A stretch of DNA of 64,000 nucleotides, from IMG/VR virus record IMGVR_UViG_3300034061_002572, positions 32,001-96,000 of that record. One strand, 5' to 3'. Position 1 is the first letter of the stretch. Each line of letters opens with the position of its first letter. The notes under the pieces are model-generated. The model was not told the origin of the DNA, searched no databases, and saw only the letters and a program-made list of their open reading frames with translations. Below, in pieces: positions 3,001 through 58,988 of this stretch. The translations under genes were made by a program, and so were the position numbers. The stretch is from a virus.

Positions 3001-5792
3001 TTTAAACCATCAACAGAATTAACACCTCTATCCAGCATGCTGAACATTGCATTATCTACATTTGGTTTATAGATGTTTAGTATTGAGGGATCACCACTTG
3101 CCATGTATAACTTATCATACAATTCCTTGACAGCAGGTATAAGAGTTACATCACCGGCAACTTCTTCTCTTTTGAATACTTTATTAAATAATGACTTTAT
3201 AAAATTTAAAATTCTTCTAAACAGACTATTCTTTACAGGAGTATCTTTTGCAGCTTTTGGATTTAGAACATAACTCCTAAAGTCTTCTGCCAGCATTTCT
3301 TCTAATTCAAAATATGTTTTGTCTTTGTTAGGTTGATTACCTTTAGAATCTGTATAATTTTTTAATTCATTATATAGCTTAGTCTTTTCTTCTTTAGTTA
3401 AGAACAACTGAGAAAATGCATGCCATGCTTCATGGTATACATCTACCATAGTTCCACCATTAGCAGTATCAATATTTATACTTGTATCCGCCAGAGTAGC
3501 TCCAGCAATAATAAAATTTGCAAAAGAATCTGAGTTAACAACATTACTCATTTGTTCAAGCTTGATAAACTTACTTAATGGACTATTCTTCCACCATTTT
3601 ATAGCTTCATCAACTTGTTCTTTGGTAACATTATTAGGTAACTTATTACTTCTGTCCCAGAAAAATCGGTTTCTCAAAGTTCCTTTTGAAGTAGGTGTTT
3701 CTTCAGGTCCTTTAGTATCTTTAGGTTGAATACCTTCTTCAATACTTGGAGCAACTGGGAATGATACACTTTCTTTAAGTATAAAGTCATCGGTACTTGT
3801 CGGTAATACATCCGGTTCACTTTTTACTGCTGAATCTACATTAGTAGGTGCAACCTCTCCAAATGTAAGAGTATCTGTAACTTCTCCTTCTTCTTTAACT
3901 TCAGTAGGTTGAGTAGATGGTTTTTGATCAACTTTTTCTTTAGCTCTATTTAAACTTTCAGTAAATGGAGTATTAGGTCTGAACATAATATAAGAGTTGA
4001 AAACTCCTAGACTATTCTCAGGTGTAAATTTTACTTTAGCAGGAAACTGTTTAATGAAATCAGTATAGTTTGCTCTTACAAACTTACCTGTAGTAGTATC
4101 ATAGTCAGAAAAAGTTTTACCATTAAGTTTAGGTTCAAACTTCATTTTAGAAGTTGAGTATTCACCGTCCTCTCTATATGCATACTTTAATACATTCTCG
4201 ATAATATCTTTTGCATCTGGTTTAGTAAGATCAAGCGCAATAGGATCATTCTTTAATTTATCTAACATAGCTTTATACATTGTATAAGGTCTATAGAAAA
4301 ATGATAGTTTGCCTTCTGCTTTATTATAGAAGACAGCATGTCTTTGAACTGAATAGTCAAGATTAGCTGTAAACTGATTTACATAAATATATTTTTGTTG
4401 ATCGGTTAACTGTGGATTTGTAAGTACTGCAACAATTTTACCTATAAGATTATCATCCATATTAGGTCTATTAACTGCAAACTCTCTGTCATTAATAGTA
4501 ATTACTGCTTGAGATTGTCCAAAACCATCACGAGGAGATTTGATAATATTTAGTGTTTGATATACATCATTTGATACTCCCGGGATATTTGTTAGTTCAT
4601 TAAACTTAACTTCCTTGGTCACATATCCCATGTTTAATCCTTCACTAACACCAGTTATAGAGAAGTCTTCAGTTTTCCCTTCTAGTATATTTTTTTTAAT
4701 ATCATAGAGAATTTTAAACTGAGCTTGCTGTTCAACTTCTTTTTCAGCAATTAAATCTTCAATTGTTTTTCCTGTATCTTTTAATAACTGAGCAGCAAAT
4801 TCTTCTTCAGTCATTTCTGATTCAGCTATTTCATTTTCTACAAGTTGTTTAGGAGTAATGATTTGATTATCAATACCATAGATATCTGTTACTCTATACT
4901 TGCCATCTTCAATTCTGGTGTCTCTTAAAAATTGATAAACCAGTTTTCCAGTTTCACGATTATCAGTAACATGTCCATCTTCATCAAATAAAACAATCTG
5001 ATTAGTATTTTTATCTACTAATACCATTGCAATCATTTCATTTGCTTCAGTAACTCCAGCTCTACCTGTTTTGTTCTTTCTAAATAGAGCACTCTTTTTT
5101 ATTCGGTCAATAGCATACTTATCTAATTGCTCTTGAGGAAGTTCTGTTAATCTTTTAGGTTGAAGCACTAAGTTTTTACCTTCAAAGATTAGATCTGTCA
5201 TTGCATTAAATCCTTCAGGTAATGATCTTCTGATATTATATAGAGTATTATAAATTCTATTTTTTGTTGGTTCAAGTTCTTCAATTGCAAACTCTTCTTT
5301 CTCAGAAGGTTTTTTTGCTTTGAATTGTTGCATTGTTAAACCAAAAGGACTCTTAGCAGCAAGTCTTACATCAGCTTTCTGAATAGGCTTTTGTTCATTT
5401 GGATTATTCAAGACATTTCCTTGTTGGATTTTAACAAGTGTCTTTAAATTTTTTGGATCAGCAACTGGTTTAAATTGTTTTAGTACACTATCTATTCCAG
5501 TATCCGGATCTAAGAATGTATCTCTTAACTCCATCAAGTCTGTTTCCTTCTTAAGTTTTAATCCTCTCATAGAAGGTTTCATAGCAATTGTACCAATAAT
5601 CATAGGTAACTGCTGAACAAATAATGCCCCTGTTATAGGATCATTCTTCTTGTCATATAAGTCAAAAATTTGTTGCATTAGCTGCTTAGGATCAAACTCT
5701 TCACCTTTTGAAAGTGAAGCATTCATTCCTGAACTAGCTACAATATATAAATTCTTAATGTCCTTTTCGGTTAATACACAACTTGTTTTCAT
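1..5792 (-). CDS. Giant virion-associated RNA polymerase-like protein with N-terminal zincin domain (partial, runs off window start; not in ORF track)
   Basis: ATG at 5792 (MKTSCVLTEKDIKNLY...). Spot translations near 5700, 3430, 250 and 1-120 fall in one frame. HEAWH (3420-3434) plus EEMLAEDFR form a zincin motif. EETDAQGFITFDAYR (~220-260) and MHKFALIPLIP resemble crAss-like virion RNAP segments. It follows the cargo genes as in crAss-like phages. The catalytic DxDxD is not in the window. Confidence 0.75.
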   Translation of the reverse strand, partial: MKTSCVLTEKDIKNLYIVASSGMNASLSKGEEFDPKQLMQQIFDLYDKKNDPITGALFVQQLPMIIGTIAMKPSMRGLKLKKETDLMELRDTFLDPDTGIDSVLKQFKPVADPKNLKTLVKIQQGNVLNNPNEQKPIQKADVRLAAKSPFGLTMQQFKAKKPSEKEEFAIEELEPTKNRIYNTLYNIRRSLPEGFNAMTDLIFEGKNLVLQPKRLTELPQEQLDKYAIDRIKKSALFRKNKTGRAGVTEANEMIAMVLVDKNTNQIVLFDEDGHVTDNRETGKLVYQFLRDTRIEDGKYRVTDIYGIDNQIITPKQLVENEIAESEMTEEEFAAQLLKDTGKTIEDLIAEKEVEQQAQFKILYDIKKNILEGKTEDFSITGVSEGLNMGYVTKEVKFNELTNIPGVSNDVYQTLNIIKSPRDGFGQSQAVITINDREFAVNRPNMDDNLIGKIVAVLTNPQLTDQQKYIYVNQFTANLDYSVQRHAVFYNKAEGKLSFFYRPYTMYKAMLDKLKNDPIALDLTKPDAKDIIENVLKYAYREDGEYSTSKMKFEPKLNGKTFSDYDTTTGKFVRANYTDFIKQFPAKVKFTPENSLGVFNSYIMFRPNTPFTESLNRAKEKVDQKPSTQPTEVKEEGEVTDTLTFGEVAPTNVDSAVKSEPDVLPTSTDDFILKESVSFPVAPSIEEGIQPKDTKGPEETPTSKGTLRNRFFWDRSNKLPNNVTKEQVDEAIKWWKNSPLSKFIKLEQMSNVVNSDSFANFIIAGATLADTSINIDTANGGTMVDVYHEAWHAFSQLFLTKEEKTKLYNELKNYTDSKGNQPNKDKTYFELEEMLAEDFRSYVLNPKAAKDTPVKNSLFRRILNFIKSLFNKVFKREEVAGDVTLIPAVKELYDKLYMASGDPSILNIYKPNVDNAMFSMLDRGVNSVDGLKSEVLNFQDSAVLVNSIDSIISDIIDKTYAESIELAKQQNDDKIVSKAGAVKILTDQRNKKVAYEMVEEELRERLKQIDSQIKVIENNPEREYEISQLEDAKRIIQIGLDNFGDETKGLVKYHIENSTFDIVRQKYIEIEYADDENKTVVEEAQQSERYGDKISNDKSLQELASKETVYILKSLFKKDGKNFVYNKLGFKELADFTTTWNNVTRTIGGTKDRVEMYNKLKAASTTFPELQQLIDYKLPDPTKTLDKYEFSISSAFWQDFKKPRVTYIQLTAFKEGKGYELEVTEASIETSSVIRKFQNKFKADTNNPYTIRTNNVNSLDLQKIAEKFGRKDSGAFDSTKSFEFARAIGLYLDDLSIIKNELNKNKDFYSLQYIYQAVKKLSELEELSNKEKNKVTRDQLKTIADFKLDPVGVLKKGIPAGVIGTEQFKQKNIIERFAELQGKYGADSSNFSVLNAERNLVFEHIEDHTVSMIVHAINQAKNLQELWGSDKLAYMSYLNPEINSFTLRSKILNSIFEIDTATYERRQGKSLDLNYVSGTQIADGTEGANTTSLDIYSKFLQEMHMMLKGGLQEFMRHASKSSSFGVKVNGDIVGGMEKGDDGHLYIDIDMFTPNGIANQYAVEEFFIDYLDAELGRIQAFNSDQDLFKTYSGYNRVLEYDANGDPILYAGQVFTAFDNVLTQDTKEEIYKNVKDSTLREYLQTNTELREKITNEIKNYFDAQALKNEKYLTEVNYIDPKLLKRLTGLGMKQSEAVSALVKAFTYNSWIHNFETANLMYGDMVQYNHAKEEMHKRNTGSTSGGQGFLTDVYAQNFINSFAKNTSYAKELKKQPEFANEMNLWTEYRGTFNTAIFRDIERKSVYTEQIRKGLTKDYTNKLSKSYKGDALKAEVERRVNLEVEKYEKMEETDAQGFITFDAYRNLRLLENNWTDKQEALFQKIIQNKPVTTSEISEFFPAYKLQHFGHLAYTELPVNAMHKFALIPLIPNVIKG

Positions 5793-21646: not shown

Positions 21647-21704
21647 GATATTGGTTATATAATAAATATACTAAATTTTAAATTAATAACTAAACTTTAT
21701 AAGT

Positions 21705-29529: not shown

Positions 29530-30573
29530 CTATACAATTCTATTACTTACCGCTCTTCTATAATATTGATTGTTAGGTAAATGAGATTTAAACATATCAT
29601 AGTATTTTGCATACTGTGATTTTCTATTAGTCCACCAGAGTTTCTCCATTTCTTTGAAATTAGGTGTATTAACTAAACTTAATGCATTGTTTCTTGCTGC
29701 TTTGTATTCAGGAACAATAATCTGTAATCTCTGCGCTACATCTTCACCATTTAAGGCAAGGTTTTCAATTATTCTTTTCTTTAAAGCATACTCATAGTAT
29801 TCATTAAGTAATGCATGATCAGGAACAAGTAATTGTCCTTGTTCATCTTCTAATTCTCCTTGATAGTTTAAATAAACTTTACCTGTTTCAAATGTTGTAA
29901 ATAAATAGCCTCCTTTTATCCATCCTTCATTATAAGTATTGTAATATAGATTAGGACATTCGCATTCTATATTCTGACTTGATTTCATTCTTAAAGGAAG
30001 TAAAGTTTTATAGATTCTAGTAAGTCCTGGGTTAATTACTTGGACAAGTTCATACTTTTCTCCTTTACAATTCATAAATACTCTTGGAGGAATACATGTG
30101 TCACCATATGGATTATTAGGATCATATGATGTAGGTATAGGATCTACTATAGGATGATTAAGATCGCAAGCTGCAGTTTTATTACATGGATTAGAATTAC
30201 ATGTTCTACAATTAACTGTAATAGGAGCACAAGTATCTACTGTACTTGGAAATTCCTTATATGGAATTTCTTGTATATTTGTTCCTCCTTGCATTCCTCC
30301 ATATCCAACTCTTTCTTCAAACTCTCCACAAATCATTCCGTAATTCCATACATAAAAATCATCTGGTAATTTTACTTTATTATGACATACTTCAACAATA
30401 ACTTCTTTGGTTTGATTTAATCTAAGACCCAACTCATAGTTTAGTTTTCTTACCAACTTAATAAGTTGTTGAGGCTCTATCATATTTTCTAGAGCAAATG
30501 TATTTAAGTCAATAGTAACATCTTCCAGCAACTGGTCAAAGGTTCTGTATTTAAGAGTATAATTAAAATCCAT
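29530..30573 (-). CDS. Tail ring protein with Cys-rich insertion
   Basis: VKLPDDF, GYLFTTFETGKVYLNY, LLVPD...YYEYALK pattern of crAss-like ring proteins; synteny. Confidence 0.6.
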   Translation of the reverse strand: MDFNYTLKYRTFDQLLEDVTIDLNTFALENMIEPQQLIKLVRKLNYELGLRLNQTKEVIVEVCHNKVKLPDDFYVWNYGMICGEFEERVGYGGMQGGTNIQEIPYKEFPSTVDTCAPITVNCRTCNSNPCNKTAACDLNHPIVDPIPTSYDPNNPYGDTCIPPRVFMNCKGEKYELVQVINPGLTRIYKTLLPLRMKSSQNIECECPNLYYNTYNEGWIKGGYLFTTFETGKVYLNYQGELEDEQGQLLVPDHALLNEYYEYALKKRIIENLALNGEDVAQRLQIIVPEYKAARNNALSLVNTPNFKEMEKLWWTNRKSQYAKYYDMFKSHLPNNQYYRRAVSNRIV

Positions 30574-31235
30574 TATCTTAAGTTATTTTGGCTATCATCT
30601 GCACCATCAGATGGTATATTGATTGCCATGGTTAATTCTTTAACAACAAATTGTTCAACTTCAGAAAACAAATATTCAGGAATATTTAATGGTTGATCTT
30701 GTTGAATTTGACAAGGATCCGTATCACAGTTTTCAGTATTGTTTTCAAATATTGCTTCTATTCTTACGGCATCCCAATCAATATTTGGAGCATACAAGTA
30801 TCCATTAAGATACCAGAAGTAAGGTCTTTTATTATATTTAAAAGTTGTTGACTTACTAATAGATATCCAAGTTCCCGGATCTGTTCTAAACATTTCAATA
30901 GAACCATCTATTGAAGATACAGTACGAATAATAGGTCCAAACATTCCATTTAAAATACTAGGAAGTTTATCCTTTGATCTTTTAAAATAACATTCTGAAT
31001 ATACACCTACACAACCGGCTTCTATTTTATCAACATCAATAAGTTCTACGTATGGTAAAACTTGAAAGATTTGACTCATCTTCATTAGTCTAAACTGATT
31101 GTCTTCTCTTTTAATTAATGTTTGAGAATACTTCATCAAGGAAAAGTAAATAGTCCGGTCTGTTAAAAACGGATCTTCCTTTACAGCTTTTAAAGTATTC
31201 CTCACTCTTGATATTGCTTCACCTATTGTTGTCAT
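30573..31235 (-). CDS. Tail ring/adaptor protein
   Basis: 220 aa; YFWYLNGYLY...AIFE and C-terminal PSDGADD; between the IHF-like gene and the ring gene. Confidence 0.55.
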   Translation of the reverse strand: MTTIGEAISRVRNTLKAVKEDPFLTDRTIYFSLMKYSQTLIKREDNQFRLMKMSQIFQVLPYVELIDVDKIEAGCVGVYSECYFKRSKDKLPSILNGMFGPIIRTVSSIDGSIEMFRTDPGTWISISKSTTFKYNKRPYFWYLNGYLYAPNIDWDAVRIEAIFENNTENCDTDPCQIQQDQPLNIPEYLFSEVEQFVVKELTMAINIPSDGADDSQNNLR

Positions 31236-31813
31236 AAGTCAAATTCATTATATGTAGTCAAAGACTTTTTAGTCTCATACTCAGCTCTATTTTTATAGTA
31301 ACCTTTACTATATGTTGTATTTAATTTTTTTGTAGAATCTATAGCAACATACATATTCCAATTTTCTGCATATGACTTTGCTACACTTCTTTTAAATTCT
31401 CTGCATGCTACAAAACTCCAAAATTCTCTATTCTTTATTTTGTGTTTTGGAGCAAAATTGGTAAAAAAGATTTTGGCCAGTTTACCATCTGTGTCAAAAT
31501 TATTATTAGTAACAGTTACTCCATACTTTAGTGACTTTGCAAAATCAACATTTCTTTTTTTACTTTGCTCGCAACTTCCTATAAATAACCAACCTATTTG
31601 ATCAGGTAATTGAATCCCATCTCTGTTGTCAATTACATTCTGATACACTGCTGTATTAAAGGTTTTTATAATAGTCTTTATCACAGCTTTATCCAGGTTT
31701 TTATATTCTGGATAACTTAATTTAAATTTATCAAAGAACTCTTGATTTAAAATACTGTGTACTTCAGGCCTAAATCTAGGTGCTTTTACGTCTGGTTTTT
31801 TAAATTCCTTCAT
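31232..31813 (-). CDS. HU/IHF-like protein
   Basis: Helices followed by IQLPDQIGWLFI and a C-terminal FVACREFKRSV; IHF-like genes sit in this position in crAss-like tail modules. Confidence 0.5.
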   Translation of the reverse strand: MKEFKKPDVKAPRFRPEVHSILNQEFFDKFKLSYPEYKNLDKAVIKTIIKTFNTAVYQNVIDNRDGIQLPDQIGWLFIGSCEQSKKRNVDFAKSLKYGVTVTNNNFDTDGKLAKIFFTNFAPKHKIKNREFWSFVACREFKRSVAKSYAENWNMYVAIDSTKKLNTTYSKGYYKNRAEYETKKSLTTYNEFDL

Positions 31814-31816
31814 ATT

Positions 31817-31845
31817 AATATACTAAAAATAAATGACTTTAACAA
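31817..31845 (-). promoter_or_regulatory. Putative promoter TTGTTA-N17-TATATT
   Basis: Member of the recurrent intergenic TATATT motif family; directly downstream of a terminator. Confidence 0.5.
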
Positions 31846-31853
31846 ATGTAAGT

Positions 31854-31887
31854 AAAAAACAAAACCCCCACAAGTGTGAGGGCTTTG
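31854..31887 (-). terminator. Rho-independent terminator
   Basis: CAAAGCCCTCAC-actt-GTGGGGGTTTTG followed by TTTTTT. Confidence 0.8.
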
Positions 31888-31925
31888 CTGTTGTTGTCAC
31901 AGAAACCAACAAACCTGCAACATTT
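31854..31925 (-). ncRNA. Candidate small regulatory RNA (seed hairpin plus terminator)
   Basis: Stem UGUUGCAG/CUGUGACA (31895-31922) with 12 nt loop GUUUGUUGGUUU, complementary to the AACCAACAA motif at several start codons; followed by a terminator. Confidence 0.45.
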
Positions 31926-31939
31926 TTTTGTATTTTAAT

Positions 31940-32524
31940 TTAAGCTGGAACTTCATAAAGCTTTCCCCATGTTTCAATTGAAGCTATAACAAGTGTATTA
32001 CCTGTACAGTCAATAACAATACCTTTGTCTAGTATTCTATCTAATATTTCTGCTTTAGATGAAGGATCAACAGTTTGTAAATTAAATGCAGATGAAATAC
32101 AGTCAGCAAGTATACACAAATAAGAAGAACCACTTCCATCTAAACCAATAGCACCTGTTTCAACAATACCTTTATCTAGTAGATTATTAATCTGTGCTCC
32201 ACTAAGATTTAATTCTGAAATCATTTGTGCATAGCAATTTTCAAAACTAGGATTGTCACATGGATCAGGATAAGCTGGTCGTCCTTCTTGGGTTTCAGTA
32301 AACTTTAAATACGTTTCTATAGATGCTTTAATATTATAACAACACTCAAGTTCATAACTGATTATTTCTGCATATTTATTAAATGTTTCAACTGAGGCCA
32401 AAACATACCGGCCACATGGAGGACAACAAAAATTATCAGGTATAGAACTAACTGAACCTTCATCTAATATTACATCAACAATAGCTGCTACAGAATTAGA
32501 AGGACTGGTATGAAATACAGGCAT
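31940..32524 (-). CDS. Cys-containing repeat protein, putative structural
   Basis: Three copies each of [IL]LD[KE]G and AS[VI]ET[FYW]; CCPPC. Confidence 0.55.
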   Translation of the reverse strand: MPVFHTSPSNSVAAIVDVILDEGSVSSIPDNFCCPPCGRYVLASVETFNKYAEIISYELECCYNIKASIETYLKFTETQEGRPAYPDPCDNPSFENCYAQMISELNLSGAQINNLLDKGIVETGAIGLDGSGSSYLCILADCISSAFNLQTVDPSSKAEILDRILDKGIVIDCTGNTLVIASIETWGKLYEVPA

Positions 32525-35047: not shown

Positions 35048-35061
35048 ATGTTCTATTATAT

Positions 35062-35090
35062 AATATACTAAAAATATTTAAGAATTGCAA
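35062..35090 (-). promoter_or_regulatory. Putative promoter TTGCAA-N17-TATATT
   Basis: Intergenic, upstream of the ATG at 35047; same geometry as the 31817 and 40327 sites. Confidence 0.55.
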
Positions 35091-40291: not shown

Positions 40292-40326
40292 TGTTTTTTG
40301 TTTTAGTTAATAAATAAATATAGTAT

Positions 40327-40355
40327 AATATAATAAAAGTTTTTTAATTATCCAA
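40327..40355 (-). promoter_or_regulatory. Putative promoter TTGGAT-N17-TATATT
   Basis: Intergenic, upstream of the ATG at 40291. Confidence 0.55.
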
Positions 40356-46303: not shown

Positions 46304-46348
46304 TGTTGTTGGTTTTTATTTGTTGGTTAAATTTAATACTTTTTAATT

Positions 46349-48041: not shown

Positions 48042-49307
48042 TTAAAATCTCTTGAACATGTTAGGTCTTGAGATTGTCTTTTGTGTTGATCTTTGAGGAG
48101 AAGCTGTTCTTCTAGTTTCTTCCTCTTCAGATGTTGAAGATGCAAGTTTTCTTGACTCTTCAGTTTTTAATTGTCTTACTACTTTCTCAGTAGCTGCTTT
48201 AGATCCCTGCTCTCTTACTTTGTTTTTGTATCCATCTGGATCTGCAAGTAACCAAAGAGCTTCAGCAATAAGATCATGTCTTGGTTCTACAAACTGATAT
48301 TTTTCTATCAAGTGTCCAAACAAGTTTGTAGGTTTACCAGAAATTGAAGGGTAGTTAGGTTGAACTAATCCGGAGTATAACATACTCTGCATTTTTTTGT
48401 CAAGTTTTACACCTCCTAGTTCTCCAGCAGATAGAGTGTTGAATACATTATCTGTATATGCTTTAGCTTGTTTTGCCTGCATTTCTTTTTTCTGCTCTTG
48501 TTCTGCTAGTTGTCTTGCAACAATTTCTTCTTGCATTCTATCTAACTTTGGTTTGAATTGGTTAGCTTTTTGTTCTAACTTATTCATGTCTACCCAGTCA
48601 TTGATTTCTTCTTCAATTTCTTCAGGTGTTCCAAAGTTTGTAGCATAAAGATATTGTCTTGCAATTTCTGCTTGATCATACTCATCAGCCGGATCTAGTT
48701 CTCTTATTTCCTCAACATGGGCTAAGGTTCTAAATAAGCCTTTAAGATCTTGTCCGCCATCTGCTACATATTTAGCAGCATATTGGAGTTCTTCAGGAAG
48801 AGATTGAAAAAACTCTTTTGGAGTATTTTCTCTAATTGCATTTTCTCTTTCTTGAAAGTTAGCTTCAAATAGTTCTCTAAAATCTTTTGTTGTATACTCC
48901 TCTAAAGGTTTATCGTCATCAAAAGGAATTAGAGTACCTTCCTCAATCATTTTAGTTGCTAACTCAGCAAGACCTGATTTATCAACTTTTGGTCTTCCTT
49001 TATTGCCAGCATCTTCTTCTTGAGAAATTAAGCCATCAAGTTCAGCTATTGTTTCTTCAACTTCTGCTTTTTTTTCTGCTTCCTCTTTCTTTTCAGTAGG
49101 AGTAGCAGTATTGTCAAGGAACGTAGTGTCTACATTTTCTTTAGAAAACATAGACTTTGGTTTTTCTTCTGTCTTACCATCTTCAGGAAGCATTACACTT
49201 TCTGCACCCGGCATTCCAAAGATCTCATCAATATTAACTTCAACTTGCTCTACCTTTGTAGTATCAAGTACCTGGGTTTCCCCAGTTGCTTTGTTGGTTT
49301 CTTCCAT
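48042..49307 (-). CDS. Acidic coiled-coil protein, putative scaffold (start probably MEETNK at 49307)
   Basis: Very E/D-rich and helical; between portal and MCP; the ORF-track start at 49331 overlaps the promoter motif. Confidence 0.6.
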   Translation of the reverse strand: MEETNKATGETQVLDTTKVEQVEVNIDEIFGMPGAESVMLPEDGKTEEKPKSMFSKENVDTTFLDNTATPTEKKEEAEKKAEVEETIAELDGLISQEEDAGNKGRPKVDKSGLAELATKMIEEGTLIPFDDDKPLEEYTTKDFRELFEANFQERENAIRENTPKEFFQSLPEELQYAAKYVADGGQDLKGLFRTLAHVEEIRELDPADEYDQAEIARQYLYATNFGTPEEIEEEINDWVDMNKLEQKANQFKPKLDRMQEEIVARQLAEQEQKKEMQAKQAKAYTDNVFNTLSAGELGGVKLDKKMQSMLYSGLVQPNYPSISGKPTNLFGHLIEKYQFVEPRHDLIAEALWLLADPDGYKNKVREQGSKAATEKVVRQLKTEESRKLASSTSEEEETRRTASPQRSTQKTISRPNMFKRF

Positions 49308-49394
49308 TGTTGTTGGTTTTTGGTTATACATTAATATAATAATAAATTTTAAAAATTTAAAGCTTTATAATTCTTTTTATCTACTATATAGCTA

Positions 49395-56718: not shown

Positions 56719-57024
56719 TTATGATTTTTTTAACTTTCTCTCCTTTGGTGCATTTAGAGATTCTGTTTCTTGTTCAACTTCTGAGTCATCTTCATTTTGT
56801 CCATGCTCTGATTGAGATTGCATAAGCATACCAAATTGTACTTGGATGCTTGCTCTTTTAAATCTTACCTCATCTATTTTAGCCAATATACTTTCATACT
56901 CATATTGTGCATTTAAATAAGGTAATGAGTCCGTGTAAAAAGAAAGCATTTCTTCTTTTCTTTTTGCTAACTCTTCTGGAGACAATTGCTCCATTTCATC
57001 TGTTTGTTGGTTTAAATTTTCCAT
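56719..57024 (-). CDS. Small acidic coiled-coil protein (start probably MENLNQ at 57024)
   Basis: First gene after the promoter at ~57050; the ORF-track start lies inside the promoter. Confidence 0.6.
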   Translation of the reverse strand: MENLNQQTDEMEQLSPEELAKRKEEMLSFYTDSLPYLNAQYEYESILAKIDEVRFKRASIQVQFGMLMQSQSEHGQNEDDSEVEQETESLNAPKERKLKKS

Positions 57025-57045
57025 TTTATATATTTTAAGTTTAGA

Positions 57046-57053
57046 CAAATATA
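57046..57053 (-). promoter_or_regulatory. Putative promoter element TATATTTG
   Basis: Matches the Bacteroidota -7 consensus TAnnTTTG and the local TATATT family; just downstream of a terminator. Confidence 0.5.
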
Positions 57054-58408: not shown

Positions 58409-58631
58409 CTTCTTCTGTATTTGTTGGTTGGTCAATTGTCAGTTGGGATAATGTAGCAGCTACTGTTCCTGCTGTTACTACATATCCAGCTGCTGTGACT
58501 AATGCTGCTGGTAAAGTTACTGGAGCTGCAATAATTACTCCTGCTACTGCTCCGGCAACTATTGCTATTCTTTGCACCTTTTTCCAAAAGCTAGGGGTTG
58601 GTGCATCCCATCTTTGTTTTAATTGCTTCAT
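58383..58631 (-). CDS. Putative holin
   Basis: 82 aa with a long hydrophobic stretch (1-2 TM), directly upstream of the endolysin. Confidence 0.65.
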
Positions 58632-58936: not shown

Positions 58937-58988
58937 ATAAATAATTACACTATAATATACAAAAAAATTTTGATATAAGTATAATTAC

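Follow-up and report, generated by a model that had tools for sequence, protein, structure and literature searches.

We describe here a small hairpin on the minus strand of a 64,000-nucleotide (nt) stretch of viral DNA, referred to as the window, which corresponds to bases 32001-96000 of a single 122,643-bp viral contig (IMG/VR record IMGVR_UViG_3300034061_002572; G000). The hairpin lies in the spacer between two genes, P0001 and P0002, directly ahead of an intrinsic terminator, and on comparison of related loci it is a selected RNA structure of the gene-sense strand with a frozen loop. The exact complement of the loop core, AACCAACAA, forms a short box at the start codons of a set of genes comprising the scaffold-position gene, the gene following that of the head protein (the post-head gene), a gene for a small Cys-rich protein, the first gene of the packaging block and the endolysin gene. 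We propose that the hairpin is an antisense RNA borne in a 3' untranslated region (UTR), the loop of which pairs with late-gene start regions and probably represses their translation, and we give this proposal an even chance of being correct. A trans-acting small RNA (sRNA) of this type had been suggested in a preliminary description of the window. The element has the features of an sRNA derived from a 3' UTR, namely a structured body ended by a terminator, a location in a 3' UTR without a promoter of its own, a conserved unpaired loop and complementarity to the starts of multiple mRNAs.

The spacer from the P0001 stop to the P0002 ATG is 126 nt long and contains, in gene sense, 17 A-rich bases, the hairpin (starting 18 nt past the stop), a linker, the terminator, a TAnnTTTG-like word and TTTAGTATATTA, which abuts the next ATG (coordinates in Table 1). 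The stem is formed by the pairs U-A, G-C, U-A, U-G, G-U, C-G, A-U and G-C, and since the two G-U pairs become C.A mismatches when read on the plus strand, only sense-strand RNA can form the stem. ViennaRNA adds one more G-U pair within the loop, which is otherwise unpaired in both the minimum free energy and the centroid structures. The 106-nt stretch folds at -28.9 kcal/mol with a z score of -2.79, equalled by 2 of 200 shuffles, and the terminator scan placed 14 pairs at 31889-31858 with a U-run to about 31852. The 8-bp stem with two G-U pairs, the linker and the terminator given in the preliminary description are all borne out by sequence and fold. The 3'-UTR origin that it considered possible also fits, in that 90 of 93 relatives have an open reading frame (ORF) of 60 codons or more that stops 7-77 nt ahead of the loop core, and no promoter-like box lies between the P0001 stop and the hairpin, whether searched by eye or with a sigma-70 scan.

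No tRNA was found in the window and no Rfam family reached its gathering score there. A permissive Rfam search of 31780-31980 returned, as its best matches, unrelated models of leaders or sRNAs that scored 12-25 bits where their cut-offs are 47-99; these sub-threshold models share the hairpin-plus-terminator shape, and some of them are amino-acid leaders. An alternative hairpin, UUGUUG[GUUUCUGUGA]CAACAA (31889-31913, minus strand), joins the loop core to the ACAACAA linker and would mask the proposed seed. This linker is conserved in close relatives and absent in three others (L035, L038 and L186). A transcription attenuator was considered and rejected, because this pairing, the sole alternative found, leaves the terminator stem untouched and does not occur in distant relatives. 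An H-type pseudoknot between loop and linker was likewise set aside, by reasoning only, as there is no connecting loop to cross the 8-bp stem.

Relatives of the locus were fetched from IMG/VR with P0002 as the anchor, first 40 loci and then 80. The word TTGTTGGTT was present upstream of P0002 in all of the first 40, at 99-146 nt before the ATG in 39 of them and at 1,535 nt, with another gene between, in L035. In the set of 80 it was found 97-117 nt upstream in 78, and the remaining two differ at the last base only. The distance from the hairpin core to the P0002 ATG is thereby 97-146 nt in all lineages but one. Queries with the L035 and L038 proteins for distant homologues yielded one new genome only (L186). 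A covariance model (R1) built from 33 distinct sequences matched the window once (E = 1.3e-24). The entire contig and five complete relatives likewise gave a single match each; the element is thus present once per genome in all six genomes tested, and it was matched in 94 of the 94 sources searched.

The stem and loop of the hairpin have been conserved in different ways. In an alignment of 73 distinct rows (A3), which was fitted to the model structure so that its counts lean towards that structure, 94.1% of paired cells could pair, compared with 89.6 +/- 0.3% after column shuffling and 42-58% when the partners were slid. Changes on both sides were seen at 12 of 17 pairs against 3.9 +/- 1.1 in shuffles, none of 500 reaching 12. 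They affected six of the seven pairs of the loop-bearing helix (helix 1, with 92.3% of its cells paired) and six of the ten pairs of the terminator (helices 2 and 3). Distinct stems can also be seen by eye in the raw sequences, independently of the model-fitted alignment, the variants being GUUACAG/CUGUGAC and, in deeper branches, UCAGAAU/AUUCUGA, AUCACG/CGUGAU and GUCACGA/UCGUGAC. The non-Watson-Crick cells of the loop-bearing helix comprise 70 G.U and 6 A.C, and therefore the selected form appears to be the gene-sense RNA and not a DNA palindrome or an RNA of the antisense strand.

All 73 rows agree at nine loop columns (A3 26-32, 35 and 39), against a mean column identity of 69% for the region, making the loop its most conserved part. 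Both the stem covariation and the loop conservation anticipated in the preliminary description were thus found. The loop is altered in two relatives, L094 and L108, at its 3' edge only (to GGUA and GGUG), and the AAC of the linker (A3 columns 50-52) is kept in 84-96% of distinct relatives. A plain terminator or a stabiliser of the mRNA 3' end was rejected as an explanation, since this would leave the loop free to vary, but the loop is what is most conserved.

The exact box AACCAACAA occurs nine times in the window against 1.17 expected, a number reached in none of 100 shuffles. Eight copies are on the minus strand, in mRNA sense, and the sole plus-strand copy is the hairpin loop; the rest of the 122,643-bp genome contains no further copy. 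When a start region was defined as -33..+30 relative to the first ATG of any ORF with 50 or more codons, for which 6.5% of arm positions qualify, seven of the eight sense copies, belonging to five genes, fell in start regions (binomial P = 3.6e-8), as did five of the six loci that remain when paired copies are merged (P = 6.5e-6). The contiguous match to the hairpin is 10-13 nt per site. The enrichment near starts that had been suspected is confirmed by these counts, and the target coordinates and match lengths given earlier were right to within 1 nt. The eighth sense copy, deep inside a very large ORF, is probably due to chance and was left out of the targets. No copy was found in any of the plus-arm (early) genes or in the head protein gene.

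The boxes mostly occupy positions -11..-3 and sometimes codons 3-8. Since there are copies inside a preceding ORF (58420-58429) and downstream of the ATG, the position of the box follows the start codon and not the promoter. Pairing of the box with the 3' tail of the 16S rRNA was considered and rejected, as what we take to be the anti-Shine-Dalgarno sequence is not complementary to it. Hairpin and boxes share a strand, and the hairpin follows the boxes at a distance of 6-26 kb, with several terminators in between.

Could the word instead be read in duplex DNA? In that case a DNA-binding regulator of the phage would recognise AACCAACAA/TTGTTGGTT, and the inverted repeat at 31895-31922 would be a palindromic operator. 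The same protein could read a duplex site in either orientation, inverted repeats can covary as operator half-sites, and several boxes lie just downstream of promoter-like boxes. Against this, the preponderance of G.U over A.C among the stem departures on the sense strand is a signature of RNA, the orientation of the word is strict (sense at starts, antisense in the hairpin only), and the box tracks the start codon even where the copy is intragenic or internal to an operon. We consider a DNA element very unlikely.

The box is also maintained in relatives. Five complete or nearly complete relatives contain 31 copies of the 9-mer, of which five are hairpins, one per genome and antisense to the boxes. 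Of the 25 non-hairpin copies with context read (G003:119313 being left out), 16 are at starts. The post-head gene is boxed in all five of these relatives and the preceding gene, in the scaffold position, in four. When 80 relatives were fetched for each of these two genes, the box was found 2-5 nt before the ATG of the post-head gene in 55 of 55 distinct leaders and was doubled in 28 of them, whereas its surroundings and the preceding terminator vary. For the scaffold-position gene, every one of the 59 distinct start regions contained the 8-mer AACCAACA, which was extended to the complete 9-mer in 47, and a second ACCAACA copy was seen in 24. Intragenic copies of AACCAACA were found at 5, 7 or 8 nt after the ATG, in differing frames and encoding differing peptides, and with the box in three frames it follows that selection acts on the nucleotides. 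The starts of the Cys-rich-protein orthologues in G006 and G007 are preceded by the same box, and in G004 the start of the orthologue of the 101-aa packaging-block gene carries it. Other boxed starts vary between genomes, as expected of a regulon gaining and losing members.

Two further observations concern these collections. One contig of 135,860 bp (L115) contains the post-head gene twice (L269 and L284), about 122 kb apart, and looks like a concatemer-like or over-extended assembly. In Leptolyngbya phage Lbo-JY46 (L204 2700-2730 and 5685-5712), both genes flanking the head gene have CAA-rich leaders (AAACAATAAACAA and AAACAACAACAAAA) with no exact box, and these may be a looser, ancestral form of the leader. 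A search of the whole Lbo-JY46 genome for another loop and leader pair, by k-mer enrichment and hairpin scan, gave as its top words A/T-only sequences such as TTTTAAAA, which reflect leader composition.

The association of loop with box was further assessed by a hairpin scan of the whole contig (stems of at least 6 pairs, loops of 8-16 nt, less than 30% coding overlap), in which the complement of any loop 8-mer was tested at starts. The element ranked first of 116 candidates with at least three sense loci, five of its eight loci being at starts (p = 2.5e-6). It is true that a single 9-mer is involved and that no compensatory change ties the loop to the box, as might be the case if a conserved terminator-associated hairpin happened to have a loop complementary to an unrelated leader motif. 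Such a coincidence is nevertheless highly improbable given this rank, the invariance of both loop and box, and the position of the one antisense copy of the genome within the loop.

Several observations weigh against the proposal that the loop acts by pairing with the boxes. Since no compensatory change of loop and target was found in relatives, in which both are frozen, the pairing rests on joint invariance and complementarity. The co-conservation of loop and target envisaged in the preliminary description thus stands insofar as both are kept in relatives (55/55 leaders and 59/59 start regions), but not in the form of compensatory change. Furthermore, L094 and L108 have a changed loop 3' edge, yet their targets keep AAACCAACAA, and the U or G at the loop 5' edge is uncorrelated with the base after the box in the 24 post-head and 6 scaffold pairs that share a contig with the hairpin. 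Cofolding gave modest gains, of -14.6, -8.3, -8.0, -5.0 and -4.6 kcal/mol for five targets compared with -2.5 to -4.9 kcal/mol for four box-less starts, two targets being no better than the controls, in calculations where the stem must open for the loop to pair and which do not model pairing of the closed loop. A genome-wide duplexfold search was noisy, with the true boxes mixed with G-U-rich coding sites. There is also the geometry to consider, because a helix of 9-13 bp within a closed loop of 12 nt is topologically strained and stem breathing or partial pairing of the loop would be needed. Finally, the RNA is encoded in the same late arm as its targets, and the regulatory logic, be it feedback or timing, is conjecture.

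The strongest of the four rivals to antisense pairing is that the box is itself a translation-initiation element, an A/C-rich and unstructured enhancer read by the host ribosome, by S1 or by a phage RNA-binding protein, and that the hairpin is its antagonist or decoy, or unrelated to it. The distance from box to ATG is fixed (2-5 nt in the 55 post-head leaders), as for a ribosome-binding signal, and the genome is without Shine-Dalgarno sequences, such words (GGAG, GAGG or AGGA at -20..-5) being found at 4 of 130 ORFs. According to PMC6847099, initiation in Flavobacterium johnsoniae is adjusted through a low degree of structure and through adenines upstream of the start, such as A-3, and a box with 2-nt spacing likewise puts an A at -3. 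The CAA-rich leaders of Lbo-JY46 (AAACAACAACAAAA), which precede two equivalent genes without the exact box, are also compatible with such an element. However, a general enhancer needs no invariant 8-9-mer with two fixed C-C steps across phages whose P0002 proteins are 41-48% identical, and it would be hard to see why the early genes and the head protein gene do without it. It also leaves unexplained why an exact complement is found in a covarying hairpin, once per genome and in every genome, and if the hairpin were a decoy the pairing of loop and box would remain the mechanism. We consider it unlikely that the box is primarily an initiation element of this kind.

It is also conceivable that the hairpin acts without being released, with the 3' end of long late transcripts pairing with a box on the same or another mRNA, so that a 3'-5' contact or a barrier to exonucleases stabilises the message instead of repressing it. 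All of the genes involved are on one strand and transcribed in one direction, the hairpin is immediately before the terminator that ends the structural block, and the boxes are often in leaders that are very short and directly follow a promoter-like box or a terminator, near probable 5' ends. This would not apply to the box at 58420-58429 or to the intragenic boxes, which are not at 5' ends, and pairing at -11..-3 would still block initiation. Since an mRNA-stabilising stem-loop before a terminator also needs no invariant loop, we regard stabilisation by an unreleased hairpin as quite unlikely.

Under the antisense proposal, transcripts of the tail-fibre operon would end in the hairpin and the strong terminator that immediately follows it, and these two together would persist as a stable RNA of about 75-90 nt. 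This RNA may arise when the operon mRNA is terminated and then trimmed from its 5' side, or it may be the 3' tail of that mRNA. Acting in trans, its loop would base-pair with the boxes over 8-13 nt, and translation of the boxed genes would be lowered as tail-fibre transcripts accumulate. Lowered translation is the most likely direction since, on leaders lacking Shine-Dalgarno sequences, the boxes coincide with the site that the 30S subunit has to occupy. An sRNA that pairs as far into a gene as roughly the fifth codon can prevent binding of the 30S subunit, and fast antisense pairing is favoured by YUNR-type words, to which the loop words UUUG and UUGG presumably belong. A bolder version, which we consider improbable, goes beyond a simple damper. 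It holds that, in hosts with ribosomes that disregard Shine-Dalgarno sequences, this phage clade uses a private translation code, in which a fixed 9-nt box at the Shine-Dalgarno position of chosen late genes is read by one phage loop, supplied in trans as an anti-box switch or adaptor that gates ribosome loading on head, packaging and lysis messages.

By analogy, the nearest precedent for the proposed RNA would be the c4 RNA of phages P1 and P7 with regard to mechanism, and the sRNAs derived from 3' UTRs with regard to architecture. The c4 RNA is processed out of the leader of the very transcript that contains its target, being encoded ahead of the target operon and co-transcribed with it, whereas the hairpin lies at the 3' end of another operon and has its boxes 6-26 kb upstream. 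No sequence or structure match to c4, for which Rfam presumably holds the family named C4, was found with Rfam in the window. A review (PMC12197685) describes c4 as binding mRNA around the ribosome-binding site and blocking translation of a phage gene, through complementary sequences thought to be in loops. Like c4, the RNA proposed here would act on sites other than its own antisense strand. The c4 RNA serves immunity in temperate phages through one antirepressor operon, whereas at least five late genes are concerned here and the window contains no sign of lysogeny.

Among 3'-UTR-derived sRNAs, CisR from the prtV 3' UTR inhibits the cep mRNA of CTX-phi (PMC13250501). The likeness of sRNAs of this type to the present element is that a hairpin and the terminator of the parent gene form the body and that a short conserved seed is directed against mRNAs made elsewhere. 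They are, however, host-encoded sRNAs of proteobacteria that employ Hfq and RNase E, whereas the present element is phage-encoded and has a putative Bacteroidota-type host. To our knowledge, Bacteroidota lack Hfq. Phage-encoded trans-acting sRNAs that alter mRNA levels or translation in the lytic cycle are represented by VpdS of VP882 and PreS of lambda (PMC12197685 and bioRxiv 10.1101/2024.10.31.621285). These are Hfq-dependent and mainly address host genes (dnaN) or host sRNAs, whereas the recognisable targets here are the phage's own late genes, marked by an exact repeated word. A phage endolysin gene is also the site of the cis-antisense RNA PAK_P4as15, which has been proposed to be a translational repressor of this late (lysis) gene (PMC12197685). 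It is encoded opposite a single target, unlike the present element, which is 6-26 kb from its boxes and on the same strand. The CI RNA of satellite phage P4 has an internal sequence complementary to repeated sites (seqA and seqC) in its own transcripts and causes premature transcription termination for immunity. Unlike those of P4, the sites here are at start codons and no role in termination is evident.

Regulation in crAss-like phages has so far been described in terms of RNA polymerases and promoters. Full-text searching of the literature found no RNA regulator of these phages, although supplements may list non-coding transcripts. The words crAss and Bacteroid are absent from a 2025 review of phage sRNAs, a preprint on a crAss-like infection transcriptome does not mention sRNA, antisense or UTR, and a review of phage transcriptomics cites crAss-like phages for a polymerase paper only.

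The contig is laid out in two divergent arms with giant ORFs, and the long ORFs of the window are all on the minus strand. The sequencing runs listed for the region are of metagenomic DNA, mostly labelled lake water. The preliminary description had called the phage crAss-like, which on its gene content holds only in the broad sense, that is, by a CrAss_Ring_2 protein, the head protein and a two-arm genome with giant ORFs, as the nearest cultured relatives have only 23-30% protein identity. The major head protein matches phrog_11589 and is 28.6% identical to that of Lbo-JY46, which is among the nearest cultured phages; ring protein 2 of Flavobacterium and Cellulophaga phages is 25-30% identical. 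A search for close cultured relatives among 50,697 phage records, by blastn with the locus and tblastn with P0002, gave no match. The endolysin was assigned by phrog_17001 (E = 7.6e-57).

A search for loci related to P0001 found no relative, and its position is hypervariable, with 60 distinct C-terminal decapeptides among the 90 relatives that have an upstream ORF. As judged from these relatives, the junction of P0001 and the hairpin sharply separates a fibre cassette that is swapped from a fixed block of hairpin, terminator and promoter together with the next gene. Residues 158-172 of P0001 match the Pfam family Gas_vesicle (E = 2.7e-6, 27.9 bits against a cut-off of 25); this match covers just 15 residues of an LDKGIV-type repeated segment and is probably repeat-driven. 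P0002 matches no Pfam or PHROG family, its AlphaFold model is poor, with a mean predicted local distance difference test score of 44.9, and its matches in the ESM Atlas are unnamed viral clusters only. By tblastn, 281 relatives of P0002 were found in IMG/VR, with 41-70% identity among those inspected, and for the three probe genes the number of IMG/VR relatives was 223-289.

Two kinds of promoter-like word were seen on the minus strand. TAnnTTTG words, which we take to resemble the -7 box of Bacteroidota promoters, are present after the terminator (about 31846-31853), where the word is conserved in most relatives (upstream regions of L001-L040), and before the first packaging-block gene (about 57045-57052). 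Together with the scarcity of Shine-Dalgarno words, they hint at a Bacteroidota-type host. A second word, TTT[A/T]GTATATTA, directly precedes several late-arm genes, with 13 matches at up to one mismatch against 5.4 expected, a number reached by none of 100 shuffles. It is also found before the scaffold-position gene in relatives and is a candidate phage-specific middle or late promoter. Outside the window, a 36-nt stretch is repeated near both ends of the contig (about 183 and 122451) with one change between the copies, which suggests terminal redundancy of the assembly.

Table 1. Positions of the hairpin, its boxes and neighbouring features in the window (numbered from its first base)
Feature	Position	Strand	Remarks
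Hairpin	31895..31922	-	8-bp stem, 12-nt loop
5' stem arm UGUUGCAG	31922-31915	-	
Loop GUUUGUUGGUUU, proposed seed	31914-31903	-	core UUGUUGG..U..U
3' stem arm CUGUGACA	31902-31895	-	
Linker ACAACAACAG	31890..31894	-	A/C-rich; runs on into extended terminator stem
Intrinsic terminator	31852..31889	-	G/C-rich stem, loop CUUG, U-run
Box AAACCAACAAA	38359-38369	-	11 nt; 2 nt before ATG 38357 of 71-aa Cys-rich (CxxC) protein
Box, proximal	46306-46315	-	10 nt; 2 nt before ATG 46303 of 338-aa post-head-protein gene
Box, distal	46319-46328	-	10 nt; leader of same 338-aa gene (ATG 46303)
Box	49310-49319	-	10 nt; 2 nt before ATG 49307 of 421-aa scaffold-position gene, upstream of head protein
Box, intragenic	49290-49302	-	13 nt; codons 3-6 of 421-aa scaffold-position gene
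Box	57002-57013	-	12 nt; codons 5-8 of 101-aa gene (ATG 57024), after TAnnTTTG box
Box	58420-58429	-	10 nt; 12 nt before ATG 58408 of 155-aa endolysin, within preceding ORF
Eighth sense copy, probably chance	5263-5272	-	deep inside very large ORF
P0001, upstream gene	31940..32524	-	194 aa, Cys-rich, in fibre block; hairpin in its 3' UTR
P0002, downstream gene	31232..31813	-	conserved 193-aa basic protein; anchor for finding relatives
CrAss_Ring_2 protein	30573-31235		Pfam, E = 5.5e-23; two genes downstream of hairpin
TTT[A/T]GTATATTA, exact	31816-31827, 35061-35072, 58953-58964	-	candidate promoter word
TTT[A/T]GTATATTA, 1 mismatch	21664-21675, 40326-40337	-	candidate promoter word

If the pairing of loop and box is real, it would constitute a post-transcriptional regulon over structural, packaging and lysis genes that is common to a large clade of freshwater phages, and its grammar would be very simple and testable, consisting of a single loop and a single box that keeps a fixed spacing to the ATG. 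The box provides a ready marker for annotating the true start codons in these genomes, and we propose that the loop and box could be used as a compact, orthogonal part for the control of translation in Bacteroidota-type systems. Should the box and loop prove to be a private translation code of the phage, crAss-like phages would thereby gain their first described RNA regulon.

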